Origin: a virus
Taxonomy: Duplodnaviria > Heunggongvirae > Uroviricota > Caudoviricetes
Reading direction: 5' to 3' (one strand)
Length of the DNA: 51,634 bases
IMG/VR virus record: IMGVR_UViG_2579779024_000005
Below are positions 10,801 to 47,102 of the stretch, piece by piece. Below the pieces are notes generated by a model. It was given only the letters and a program-made list of their open reading frames with translations. It was not told the DNA's origin and searched no databases. A program made the position numbers and the translations under genes. Position 1 is the first letter of the stretch. Every line of letters starts with the position of its first letter.

Positions 10801-11343
10801 CATCCGGATGTTAAAGGGCCGGGGAGGCAGATTATCCAGAATCACCGAGGCCAGGAACTGTGAGGTGGTCTTGCCGTTAATGGTGACGTCCTTTTCTGTC
10901 ACCCAGTTACCGTTACGCTGTAACTGAATCAGCAGGCGGACGGATGCCGGGTTACGGTCACCCTTTGAGGTGGTCTCCACCAGTGACTGCACCCCGAAGG
11001 TAACCCGCAGGCGGTCAATGTTCGCGGACGTAATGGTGCGCGTCACCGGTTTTGCCTTCGTCACTTCCACGCCCAGTCCGGTTTCAGCTCCGGAGGACTC
11101 AAAGCCTTCCGGTGGTGTCTGCTCCTGCTCCCCGGCGCGCCAGACCGCCGTCACACCGTGTATCACGGGATTGCCGTCCGTGTCCGTCAGTGGGGTTTTG
11201 TTCACCAGAATACTCTGCAGTCCCTTCACCGGACCTTCTATCGGTCCCTCACCAATCGCATCAATCACGCTCATCATCTGCGTGGATTTGAGATTATCCT
11301 TCGCCTCACGAGGCGTGTGTGCCTTACCGCCACCTTTTCCCAT
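7870..11343 (-). CDS. J: Tail tip / host specificity protein J
   Basis: 1157 aa; [25 protein letters not shown]... is a lambda-J-like N-terminus; sits between I and lom. Confidence 0.9.
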
Positions 11344-11447
11344 ACAGCCTTCCCCTGAATAAATTAACCGCCACTTGCCATTCCGTACAGAAGTCGGATA
11401 TCCTTCGCCCGAAAAGCATGAAACACATTTCTGCCATGCTAAAGAGA

Positions 11448-11481
11448 AACCCCGGTATCAGCAGATACCGGGGTTTTCTTT
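11448..11481. terminator. Strong hairpin (12-bp perfect stem) in the I-J intergenic insert
   Basis: aaccccggtatc-agca-gataccggggtt followed by ttttctttc on plus; the reverse complement also carries a T-rich tail. Confidence 0.4.
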
Positions 11482-11548
11482 CATGCCCACCGATAATCCT
11501 GTTGGTTAAAACCGGTAATGGCATAAAAATTCTGAATATCTTCACATT

Positions 11549-11576
11549 TTCACACACTGACTGTGGCGCTTATAAT
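11549..11576 (+). promoter_or_regulatory. Candidate sigma70 promoter on the plus strand, antisense to the tail operon
   Basis: TTCACA-16 bp-TATAAT. Confidence 0.35.
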
Positions 11577-11582
11577 TTCGCT

Positions 11583-11682
11583 GCGTTAGTGTTTTTTTGC
11601 CCGAGTAACAAAAACAACTCCTTAACATTGATCTTCATTTGTCTGTCCCCGCAGCTCCGCGATCACTGCGGGATTTTTTTAT
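11583..11682 (+). ncRNA. Candidate ~100-nt small RNA (promoter to intrinsic terminator) in the I-J intergenic region
   Basis: No ORF; ends in a cccgcag...ctgcggg hairpin plus T7 run at 11648-11680. Confidence 0.3.
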
Positions 11683-11685
11683 GTT

Positions 11686-12366
11686 TTATCCCTGTCGCCC
11701 GATAACCACGACCGTTCCGCCCCCGCCTTCATCACGGGTGCTGATGTCCTGGGATATACGGCGGGAGCCAACCAGCATTTCCCCGTAAGGCACCGGCATC
11801 GGGTTCCCCTGGGCAATCATGTTATCCAGCGAGGAAAAGTACGTGTTCTGTCTGCCGTTATCCGTTGCGCGGTAATCCGGTGTTTTTGCCTTCGGGGCCA
11901 GCATCTGGGCCACACCGCCCAGAATCATGCTGGCTCCAAGTGAAAACAGCATCGTGGTGGCAGAAAAACCACCGGCTGCCAGGGCTGAACCCCATAACGC
12001 CATTGATGCCCCGGCAGTGAAGAAAGAGCCCACGATGGCTGCCGCCCCCAGCACAATCTGCAGTCCACCCTTTCCGGCCCCGGCCAGTCGCGGCACAATA
12101 TGGATGACCGTTCCCTCACCCAGCTGTTCGTGAAGACGGGCGTACACCGCCTCCGGTGCCGTGTCATAACCGGCAATACGTATCTGGTACCAGCCTTCGT
12201 TCATCTGACGGCGAAAGCCCGGCACCTGTAACGACAGCGCCCGGATGGCTTCCGCTGCCGTGTTCACATACAGGCTGAGGCGGCGGCCAAATCGTTGTAA
12301 ATCCCCGTGAAGGCAGATGCGTGCCAGTGGCGGTGACGCCAGACAGAATGCGTTCGTCGTTGCCAT
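11686..12366 (-). CDS. I: Tail assembly protein I
   Basis: 226 aa; ...ARICLHGDLQRFGRR...WYQIRIAG... is lambda-I-like. Confidence 0.85.
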   Translation of the reverse strand: MATTNAFCLASPPLARICLHGDLQRFGRRLSLYVNTAAEAIRALSLQVPGFRRQMNEGWYQIRIAGYDTAPEAVYARLHEQLGEGTVIHIVPRLAGAGKGGLQIVLGAAAIVGSFFTAGASMALWGSALAAGGFSATTMLFSLGASMILGGVAQMLAPKAKTPDYRATDNGRQNTYFSSLDNMIAQGNPMPVPYGEMLVGSRRISQDISTRDEGGGGTVVVIGRQG

Positions 12367-34759: not shown

Positions 34760-35206
34760 GGAGTTTACTCACATCTGACAAAATCAATATAAACAGCCCC
34801 TCCGGAGAGGGGCTGGAGAGTGGCGCTATGTGCCATTGCATGGTGCCGGGTGCCTCCCGGTGAATTCAGTACCAGCACCTGAATCCGCGATTATCCCATA
34901 TACCTACTCGCTGATTGCCCCTCCGCACAGGGGGATTCACCATGCCAGTTTCTTTTAACAAACTCCCCGCAAACCAGACAACAATCAACCGCCTGAATTG
35001 TGAAGTATTTAAAAATTTCTCCCGCTAACTGATACCCGGCTAACAGTCTGGCGTTTTCTTTTTCAGCAACGGGAAAGCAACAACCACCACACCCGCCACC
35101 AGCACACCGTCAGCCAGCACTGACATTATCCGGCTGCAGCAATGCCATTCACAAAAACAGTAAGCAATCACTTTTTACCGTAACCGGTGATAATCCAGAT
35201 ATGTAT

Positions 35207-35670: not shown

Positions 35671-35747
35671 TGGCGCGCTGTACTGGATTCGAACCAGTGA
35701 CCGATTGCTTAGAAGGCAATTGCTCTGTCCGGCTGAGCTAACAACGC
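35671..35747 (-). tRNA. argO: tRNA-Arg (anticodon UCU)
   Basis: 77-nt cloverleaf: acceptor GCGTTGT/ACAGCGC, D-stem GCTC/GAGC, anticodon stem ATTGC/GCAAT with loop CTTCTAA, T-loop TTCGAAT, encoded CCA. Confidence 0.85.
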
Positions 35748-35847: not shown

Positions 35848-35923
35848 TGGTGGCCCTTGCTGGATTTGAACCAGCGACCTGGCGATTATGAGTCGCTCGC
35901 TCTCACCACTGAGCTAAAGGGCC
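35848..35923 (-). tRNA. ileZ: tRNA with CAU anticodon, ileX/ileZ-like (tRNA-Ile2)
   Basis: 76-nt cloverleaf GGCCCTTTAGCTCAGTGGTGAGAGCGAGCGACTCATAATCGCCAGGTCGCTGGTTCAAATCCAGCAAGGGCCACCA; close to the E. coli ileX sequence as recalled. Confidence 0.8.
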
Positions 35924-40293: not shown

Positions 40294-40449
40294 TTACTCC
40301 TCAGGTTCGTAAGCTGTGAAGACAGCGACCTCCGTCTGGCCGGTTCGGAGTCGTACCTCGCAGAGGTCTTTCCTCGTTACCAGTGCCGTCACTATGACGG
40401 TTAAACAGATGACGATCAGGGCGATTAACATCGCCTTTTGCTGCTTCAT
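40294..40449 (-). CDS. hok: Hok/Gef-family type I toxin
   Basis: MKQQKAMLIALIVICLTVIVTALVTRKDLCEVRLRTGQTEVAVFTAYEPEE; the listed 70-aa ORF extends upstream in the mok-like region. Confidence 0.85.
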   Translation of the reverse strand: MKQQKAMLIALIVICLTVIVTALVTRKDLCEVRLRTGQTEVAVFTAYEPEE

Positions 40450-40686
40450 AGCCTGCTTCCCCTTGCCTTTCGGCACGTAAGAGGCTAACCTACATTTGTG
40501 AGACATAGATTGGGCCTCAGATTAATGTTAAGCGTCTTGCAGGACGCGAAATGTTAACTGGGGCTTTTCTCTATCTGCCTTTCAGTGTTCATGCCTGAGA
40601 CAGATAGCCTCAAGCACCCGCAGCCATTCTACTTAACTCACGTCACCTCGCCAATATGAAATCAATCAGAAAGGTGATCCATAAAA

Positions 40687-47046: not shown

Positions 47047-47102
47047 TTCTGGTGACGTTTGGCGGTATCAGTTTTACTCCGTGACTGCTCTGCCGCCCTT
47101 TT
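47047..47102 (+). ncRNA. dicF: DicF small RNA (cell-division-inhibitor sRNA processed from the dicB operon transcript)
   Basis: TTTCTGGTGACGTTTGGCGGTATCAGTTTTACTCCGTGACTGCTCTGCCGCCCTTTTT matches the DicF sequence as recalled; it lies in a 560-bp ORF-free region. Confidence 0.75.

Follow-up and report, generated by a model that had tools for sequence, protein, structure and literature searches.

A probable copy of the small RNA gene pasB between tail genes I and J of a lambda-type prophage

What occupies the DNA between tail genes I and J is the question raised by IMGVR_UViG_2579779024_000005, a viral record (Caudoviricetes) of 51,634 nucleotides (nt) that was analysed over its whole length and is called the window here. 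The gap between the two genes is 60 base pairs (bp) long in phage lambda and 342 bp long (positions 11344-11685) in the window. An original prediction, made from the letters of the sequence, had described I and J as abutting in lambda and as parted here by a 340-bp insert; the insert exists, while "abut" is only approximate for lambda. This insert very probably carries a copy of pasB, the gene of an Hfq-dependent, trans-acting, base-pairing small RNA (sRNA), as a non-coding, moron-like unit between I and J. The unit lies on the plus strand, and its transcription runs counter to that of the late operon.

Identity of the plus-strand unit

PasB (pathogenicity-associated sRNA B) was found by ligating and sequencing interacting RNAs (RIL-seq) and confirmed by Northern blot in strain E2348/69 of enteropathogenic Escherichia coli (EPEC), as an 83-nt RNA whose stability depends on Hfq (Pearl Mizrahi et al. 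2021, Sci Adv, PMC8550237). Its gene (NC_011601.1, 1466343..1466261, minus strand) belongs to prophage PP6, where, as in the window, the tail assembly gene I and gpJ flank it and have the opposite orientation; Table S6 of PMC8550237 gives the orientation as '(> <) >'. The corresponding RNA of the window occupies 11598-11680 on the plus strand, its 83 nt being set by homology to the published ends, and is identical to the E2348/69 RNA at 82 of 83 positions. The PasB Northern probe AATCCCGCAGTGATCGCGGAGCT (PMC8550237, Table S6) matches the minus strand of positions 11653-11675 at 23 of 23 nt with 0 mismatches, and therefore the RNA that it detected is a plus-strand RNA.

The two loci are nearly identical from about 11523 to 11697, and from about 11530 to 11697, where the alignment ends, one base differs. 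The sole difference inside the RNA is position 27, which is A in the window (A11624) and C in E2348/69. PasB and the form named PasB-2 differ by one nucleotide at this position, and the E2348/69 form is not the commonest one (Zhu, Shabalina and Storz 2026, bioRxiv 10.64898/2026.05.13.724894). The window variant is probably PasB-2, and the sRNA gene predicted from sequence is the already known PasB. The plus-strand sRNA of about 100 nt, antisense to the tail operon, that the original prediction had proposed is this gene, but the published RNA measures 83 nt and its start may not come from the promoter that had been proposed for it. PasB of E2348/69 and the RNA of the window are alike in the RNA itself, the I-J site, the opposite strand, the terminator and the U7 tail. 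They differ in what lies toward J, an 84-nt filler of one type ('type B') in E2348/69 and a 186-nt filler of another type ('type A'), with its own hairpin, in the window. The host of the window is probably not EPEC, and identical copies are found in ST131-like clinical isolates, ATCC 25922 and O157 strains.

The RNA ends in an intrinsic terminator at 11648-11680 on the plus strand, which is likely also the 3' module for Hfq binding. Its arms, CCCGCAG (11648-11654) and CTGCGGG (11666-11672), enclose an 11-nt loop and are followed by A and by T7 at 11674-11680, so that the hairpin and T7 run anticipated some 100 nt past the promoter are indeed there. With its 7-bp stem and U7, the terminator is of the kind described for all Pas sRNAs (bioRxiv 10.64898/2026.05.13.724894). 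The RNA has the features of the Hfq-binding sRNA class, that is, a tail of at least six U, here U7, and an unpaired region before the terminator, here 11626-11647 in the centroid fold. Of 24 aligned variants, 23 have the same terminator stem and one has A-C at one pair; the terminator loop varies in sequence and in length, from 3 to 16 nt.

Several properties of PasB come from the study in E2348/69 (PMC8550237). In the hfq mutant its log2 fold change is -6.8 in the virulence-activating condition and -2.4 in the non-activating condition, and its level is higher in the latter (overnight static lysogeny broth, LB) than in exponential Dulbecco's modified Eagle medium (DMEM). The paper lists 37 RIL-seq interactions, in every one of which PasB is the 3' RNA of the chimera. 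The partners include the 5' untranslated region of napF (70 chimeras, in all 3 libraries), hflX, fabR, map and a PP9 gene, and further ftsZ, tolC, caiF, ler, perB and bfpB/I. For this nearly identical gene it is shown that the RNA is made in lysogens, ends at CCCGCAG/CTGCGGG-U7, depends on Hfq for its accumulation and is joined to many mRNAs by ligation on Hfq, and by near-identity the same would hold for the copy in the window. No match in the gap was returned by Rfam at gathering thresholds, and the permissive matches are only weak terminator look-alikes.

Classical morons encode proteins, usually in the same direction as the surrounding operon. The PasB unit is like them in having its own promoter and terminator, in lying between genes that are near-adjacent in lambda (the 60-bp gap) and in having a lower GC content than its neighbours, and is unlike them in that its cargo is a non-coding RNA which points against the late operon. 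The morons of lambdoid phages were reportedly described by Juhala and colleagues and by Hendrix and colleagues, both in 2000.

Promoters, seed and a candidate target

The plus-strand promoter of the original prediction, TTCACA-16-TATAAT at 11549-11576, is present with 11 of 12 consensus positions and is called P-up here. Its predicted start, about 7 nt past TATAAT at about 11583, would give a 98-nt RNA. The promoter scan of the 1.5-kb region around it found 3 promoter-like sites, with 0.8 expected. Exact-pattern scans of viral contigs yielded 73 distinct variants of the promoter-to-terminator cassette, nearly all of which keep -10-like hexamers, and 66 of which carry the CRP-like site described below. 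In nearly all of these 66 the P-up -10 is nATAAT, TATCAT or a close shifted form, and the -35 varies.

The comparison also points to a candidate downstream -10 element (P-down), TAGTGT preceded by cGt, at 11587-11592 on the plus strand and 16 bp past the P-up -10. An in-register TAnnnT, free in its middle three bases, is found in 63 of the 66 variants. The start predicted for P-down is G11599, for an 82-nt RNA, and the published 5' end corresponds to 11598, for 83 nt. This end appears to fit P-down better than P-up, and P-up is perhaps not the source of the main RNA species. The 83-nt species would start near G11599 from the -10 at 11587-11592, and the stronger-looking TTCACA-16-TATAAT promoter may add the 98-nt form, the only one in which a possible helix between a 5' U-run and an A-run would exist.

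Upstream of both elements lies the inverted repeat TCTGA-ATATCT-TCACA (11531-11546, plus strand), which agrees with the core TGTGA-N6-TCACA at 9 of 10 positions. None of the 66 cassette variants with the site, among them 20 variants found without it as bait and paralogous cassettes with diverged bodies, deviates in either half-site, and the spacer between the half-sites takes 5 forms. The centre of the repeat, 11538.5, is at about -60.5/-61.5 from the predicted P-down start (G11599/11600), as would be expected of a class I site, and, counted from the P-up start, at about -44.5. This invariant TCTGA-N6-TCACA looks like a candidate CRP site and may place the cassette under cyclic AMP (cAMP)-CRP control. 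The higher level of PasB in glucose-free overnight LB is compatible with such control, and growth phase could explain it equally well.

The probable seed is CAUUGAUCUUCAU (11626-11638, plus strand), which is single-stranded in the centroid fold and lies just 5' of the terminator, and its core ATCTT (11631-11635) is invariant across the PasB family. The seed of PasB has been placed just upstream of the terminator by others as well (Zhu et al. 2026, bioRxiv 10.64898/2026.05.13.724894), who also report that the position-27 change can remove a predicted stem-loop and that gene order around PasB is unusually strongly conserved. Complementarity of PasB to napF, caiF and hflX was computed. RNAduplex on whole target fragments gave noisy long-range structures and was replaced by a count of contiguous pairs compared with shuffled sequences. 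Between the seed and GUGAAGAUUGAUG of napF, 13 pairs are contiguous (3 are G-U), as many as in the best of 500 shuffles; this napF stretch takes in the start codon and the codons after it and is part of the napF fragment recovered by RIL-seq. The variants of Stx1 phages and of strain Sakai and the commonest variants of the viral contigs make 12-13 pairs with napF in the same register, and the C27 form of E2348/69 has an extra 16-bp register, from the napF Shine-Dalgarno sequence to GUG.

As the simplest mechanism, the single-stranded seed would pair with translation-initiation regions, the GUG start of napF and its following codons being the best case, and would block ribosome binding at napF by occlusion of the ribosome-binding region. 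Position 27 belongs to the pairing region, and its change may alter the preference for targets.

Several results weigh against the identification of the unit as an active pasB copy with these properties. For the prophage of the window, expression is argued from the 82/83 identity of the RNA and from the almost identical promoter region. RNAalifold on the 24 variants returned 7 pairs, all of the terminator, with 0 compensatory changes, so that the covariance that had been proposed as a check does not appear, the terminator stem being simply invariant; the folding z-scores of the RNA are unremarkable (-0.8 to -0.9). The published 5' end comes from RNA-seq coverage and not from primary 5' end mapping (PMC8550237), and the Northern band of about 85 nt in Sakai falls between the two promoter predictions there (75-78 and 91 nt). 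The CRP-like site taken alone is no better than chance, with 1 found and 1.77 expected in the 51-kb window, 46 of the 66 cassette variants were retrieved with this very site as the search bait, and its spacing from the P-up start would be a poor class II position. In napF, mononucleotide shuffles reach 13-16 contiguous pairs, which leaves the complementarity only moderately significant, and A27 of the window interrupts the 16-bp register of C27. In the papers examined, no target of PasB is validated by reporter or compensatory mutation.

Distribution of the cassette and its relation to EcOnc22-24

At a coverage of at least 80%, 1809 of 5426 complete E. coli genomes contain the promoter-to-terminator unit, which has 5507 places in all and up to 10 per genome and is thus more than a product of chance. 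Among the matches listed, no annotated feature lies under it in RefSeq records of these genomes. The unit of the window is matched at 99% identity or more by 884 E. coli records, and the versions of Stx (Shiga toxin)-converting phages are about 78% identical to it. In the sampled viral contigs the exact variant of the window has 17 copies, the window included, and the E2348/69 form has 12. Common to the aligned variants is a GCGTTA...T-run block, with single-base changes in a few of them; the ATCTT core, the stem of the terminator and the U-tail are shared as well, these three having been partly selected for by the search patterns. A scan of one genome per species found only E. albertii and two odd short contigs and says little on spread outside Escherichia. 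The exact 22-nt PasB promoter block is found on a 546-bp contig of Asaia platycodi JCM 25414 (L007) and on a 3408-bp contig of Streptomyces flavalbus (L009), assemblies from unrelated genera; E. coli prophage DNA as a contaminant is the likely source of both matches.

In some prophages (L171, L165 and L167) the I-J gap holds an array of 3-4 PasB-like cassettes in tandem. In the array of L171 (IMGVR_UViG_2728369607_000007, 690-1520, minus strand) and its like, each cassette has its own TCTGA-N6-TCACA, -10 elements and terminator, and body and seed vary from one to the next (GGTGACTATTCG and GTTAGTCAACATCG, for example). At a coverage of at least 80%, 67 complete E. coli genomes have the 4-cassette array; among the matches listed are several strains of Shiga toxin-producing E. 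coli (STEC), with only flanking tail-gene annotation or none.

Copies with a damaged promoter were also seen. In two viral contigs an IS629-like end (TGAACCGCCCCGGGAATCCTGGAGAC...) splits the spacer of the PasB promoter right after TTTTCACAAACTGA, and these copies are probably silenced. In 10 IMG/VR loci (5 distinct sequences) the seed and terminator are intact, and unrelated sequence (GGCCTGCGGCATCATTCAATAATCAG...CTCTGAGTTAATG) stands in place of the entire promoter and CRP-like region.

The same family appears to have been met earlier in strain Sakai of enterohaemorrhagic E. coli (EHEC) O157:H7. EcOnc22, EcOnc23 and EcOnc24, from prophages Sp15, Sp14 and Sp11, are mutually homologous, are crosslinked to Hfq, run at about 85 nt on Northern blots and are destabilised without hfq (Tree et al. 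2014, Mol Cell, PMC4104026, Table S2). Their published coordinates refer to NC_002695.1 and the genome compared here is NC_002695.2, and the offset between the two was calibrated on AgvB and HnrS. The Rfam match of AgvB1 is at NC_002695.2 1941920-1941981, against a published peak at 1941783-1941835, and two features identified HnrS (EcOnc10), its terminator and its complement to the final 15 nt of mazF. From Table S2 of Tree et al. 2014 to the current RefSeq Sakai genome, the offset is about +137 to +146 nt around 1.94-2.90 Mb, a correction that any reuse of the published EcOnc coordinates needs.

The shifted peaks of EcOnc22 (Sp15) and EcOnc24 (Sp11) coincide with PasB-like RNAs of the I-J gaps there and lie at the same offset from the start codons of their J genes; for EcOnc22 the peak is at about 1152-1221 of the Sp15 locus (L131), inside a PasB-like RNA that ends at 1227. 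Since the shifted peaks lie inside PasB-like RNAs, EcOnc22-24 are PasB-family RNAs by this coordinate comparison, which rests on the shift of +137 to +146. The loci of Sp15 and Sp11 were inspected, and EcOnc23 (Sp14) was assigned from the published homology. EcOnc22 and EcOnc24 are on the plus strand relative to minus-strand I and J and share with the window the CRP-like site, the -10 elements, the seed ATCTTCAT and the terminator; the body of the Sakai RNAs differs from that of the window and their filler is of type B. With promoter and RNA together as query, 639 records have a best match of 60-80% identity, and Sakai is absent among the matches listed.

The RNA is thus already known: its discovery as EcOnc22-24 dates from 2014 and that as PasB from 2021, and a survey of its distribution followed in 2026. 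The link between the two names is absent from the PasB papers and from a 2021 review, Table S6 (PMC8550237) giving no EHEC homologue, the 2026 survey no EcOnc names and the review the targets as unknown. Neither the shared operator nor the cassette arrays are found in the papers examined.

Other sRNAs of prophages, namely AgvB/AsxR, HnrS (EcOnc10-12), PasA/C/D, StxS, DicF and svsR/co293, are likewise short, Hfq-associated, prophage-borne and ended by an intrinsic terminator, and they link prophage carriage to regulation of the core genome. They occupy other loci and share no sequence with the PasB unit. AgvB/AsxR were ruled out as the identity of the unit by their location downstream (3') of the late promoter PR' and by the lack of an Rfam match in the gap, and svsR/co293 by its overlap with the end of cI. 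HnrS was ruled out by its different sequence, its Sp12 locus lying past a small hypothetical open reading frame (ORF), between a DNase gene, which adjoins the small terminase gene, and an endopeptidase gene. PasA/C/D were ruled out by their position near sialate esterase, holin and lysozyme genes.

The hairpin next to J, alternative readings and significance

The gap is bordered on the left by the gene of the tail tip and host specificity protein J (7870-11343, minus strand, 1157 amino acids) and on the right by the tail assembly gene I (11686-12366, minus strand, 226 amino acids). The first 448 residues of J match the Pfam models FNIII-A_GpJ and Phage-tail_3, and DNA identical to it is labelled gpJ in RefSeq. 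The product of I matches Lambda_tail_I of Pfam at 2.3e-16 and is a tail assembly protein in PHROGs; the stop codon of the gene is 5 nt beyond the end of the PasB T-run. The GC content is about 42% in the gap and about 52-65% in flanking windows inside I and J. Elsewhere in the window, Rfam at gathering thresholds finds STnc100 (34785-34974, minus strand), the sok antitoxin RNA (40444-40619, minus strand), DicF (47047-47098, plus strand) and two tRNAs (35674-35747 and 35851-35923, both minus strand).

From the start codon of J to the promoter region of PasB extends the type A filler (11344-11529, 186 nt), which was delimited by comparison. It contains a perfect GC-rich hairpin at 11447-11476, flanked by A- and T-tracts and terminator-like on both strands. 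A 12-bp perfect hairpin with T-rich tails on both strands had been expected here, and the one found has 13 bp, with arms at 11447-11459 and 11464-11476 that are 100% complementary and a 4-nt loop. Its fold reaches -28.7 kcal/mol on the plus strand and -32.2 kcal/mol on the minus strand (z about -6.3 and -6.2), and 0 of 200 shuffles are as stable. It is followed by TTTCTCTTT on the minus strand, which is the strand of the tail operon, and by TTTTCTTTC on the plus strand. The type A filler is present at a coverage of at least 80% in 1445 complete E. coli genomes (1446 with any match) and is near-invariant, 1442 of 1451 matching records being at least 99% identical.

E2348/69 and Sakai lack the type A filler and both carry an unrelated type B filler of 83-107 nt. 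In the same place this filler has an unrelated GC-rich hairpin with a T-rich tract on the tail-operon strand, TGTTTTCTGG in Sakai and TGTTTTTGTG in E2348/69, and both were flagged as terminators by the scan; its stem variants include one double change of C-G to T-A with a C·A intermediate. The plus-strand T-tract is found with the type A hairpin only. The hairpin and the tail-operon-strand T-tract are common to both types, and the shared property is therefore that of a terminator in the direction of the tail operon. This suggests that the first hairpin is such a terminator, conserved in position, and that it attenuates read-through into J, as the original prediction had considered, is plausible. 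Tail-operon transcription without modification by the antiterminator Q would stop at it, and Q-modified polymerase would pass it during lytic growth. That Q-antiterminated polymerase ignores terminators is established biology of lambda. One viral contig has a type A filler of 139 instead of 186 nt, in which a 47-nt deletion, apparently between short TTTCT direct repeats, takes out exactly the hairpin; the hairpin is thus dispensable for carriage of the prophage.

Type A alone may hold a second plus-strand unit. A weaker promoter-like site, TTGCCA-18-TATCCT (11375-11404, plus strand, 9 of 12 consensus positions), precedes the first hairpin by about 45 nt, and with TTTTCTTTC after the hairpin a transcript of about 72 nt (about 11411-11482) is possible. 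Across the 1446 E. coli genomes with the segment 11375-11482 its sequence hardly varies, which makes comparison uninformative. Neither comparative nor experimental support for this second unit was found. EcOnc33 (about 71 nt), considered as a unit ending at the first hairpin, was ruled out, as it adjoins a sialate esterase gene.

The position of the hairpin bears on the best surviving alternative, a role of PasB in cis. In sequence the RNA is the full complement of the I-J junction in the late polycistronic mRNA; during lytic growth the two might pair, or convergent transcription might collide with that of the late operon, so that PasB and the hairpin together would set J relative to I and the interactions in trans would be secondary. 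Such a role is unlikely, even with a cassette that sits at the same place, in antisense, in every inspected context and under the I/J annotations of the database matches, with an unrelated tail-operon-strand terminator hairpin that always accompanies it just before J, and with the unusually strong conservation of gene order around PasB (Zhu et al. 2026). Against it, PasB accumulates in lysogens, both in overnight LB and in exponential DMEM, depends on Hfq and forms ligation products with many unlinked mRNAs. The array paralogues keep the promoter architecture and change the seed, which is expected of trans regulators and not of an antisense RNA whose target changes with it. Q-antiterminated polymerase, moreover, should by established lambda biology ignore the terminator and a weak convergent promoter. 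In view of its expression in lysogens, its dependence on Hfq, its many partners in trans and the diversified seeds, PasB is less likely to work chiefly as a cis-antisense RNA than in trans.

The trans-acting reading would also fail for this prophage if its PasB-like copy were a silent relic, unexpressed or non-functional through A27 or through the different filler. The 10 IMG/VR loci with a lost promoter and the 2 copies with the IS629-like element in the promoter spacer show that such copies arise, and the position-27 change can remove the predicted stem-loop (Zhu et al. 2026). The copy of the window, however, is identical to that of E2348/69 from the CRP-like site to the terminator except for A27, its exact variant is commoner than the E2348/69 form (17 against 12 viral-contig copies), and the 884 E. 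coli records at 99% identity or more argue for maintenance. Because the promoter region is intact and the exact variant is common, a silent relic is highly improbable.

A small protein, from the 77-amino-acid ORF at 11324-11557 on the minus strand (annotated as a 66-amino-acid hypothetical protein in phage ASU11), the 128-amino-acid ORF at 11319-11705 on the plus strand or the 22-amino-acid minus-strand ORF opposite the seed (MKINVKELFLLLGQKNTNAAKL), is hardly credible and is rejected, for although the ORFs exist and two phage records annotate hypothetical proteins within the gap, none has a Pfam or PHROGs match, the long ones cross perfect terminator hairpins, natural variants of the left part of the gap have indels of 1, 1, 5 and 47 nt that would shift the reading frame, this part is swapped wholesale for unrelated sequence elsewhere, and the commonest family variants have ACG for the ATG of the 22-amino-acid ORF (CTTCGT in place of CTTCAT). 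The original prediction had likewise seen no convincing ORF in the gap.

With PasB as a trans-acting sRNA gene, a real and experimentally confirmed gene was recovered from raw sequence alone. A third of complete E. coli genomes carry PasB, yet it has neither an Rfam family nor a RefSeq annotation. The leads of value are the start site, the conserved CRP-like operator, the pairing with the napF start codon and its relation to position 27, the link to EcOnc22-24, the tandem arrays of STEC and the terminator on the tail-operon strand. A further, rather improbable reading is that the I-J gap of lambdoid prophages is a dedicated landing site for a family of diversifying sRNA cassettes, 1 to 4 per prophage, which share an invariant CRP-type operator and a twin -10 and differ in their seeds. 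Such cassettes would wire host genes to the carbon and cAMP status of the cell; here the target would be the periplasmic nitrate reductase, reached through the start codon of napF, and the terminator and the antisense orientation would tune J on induction.

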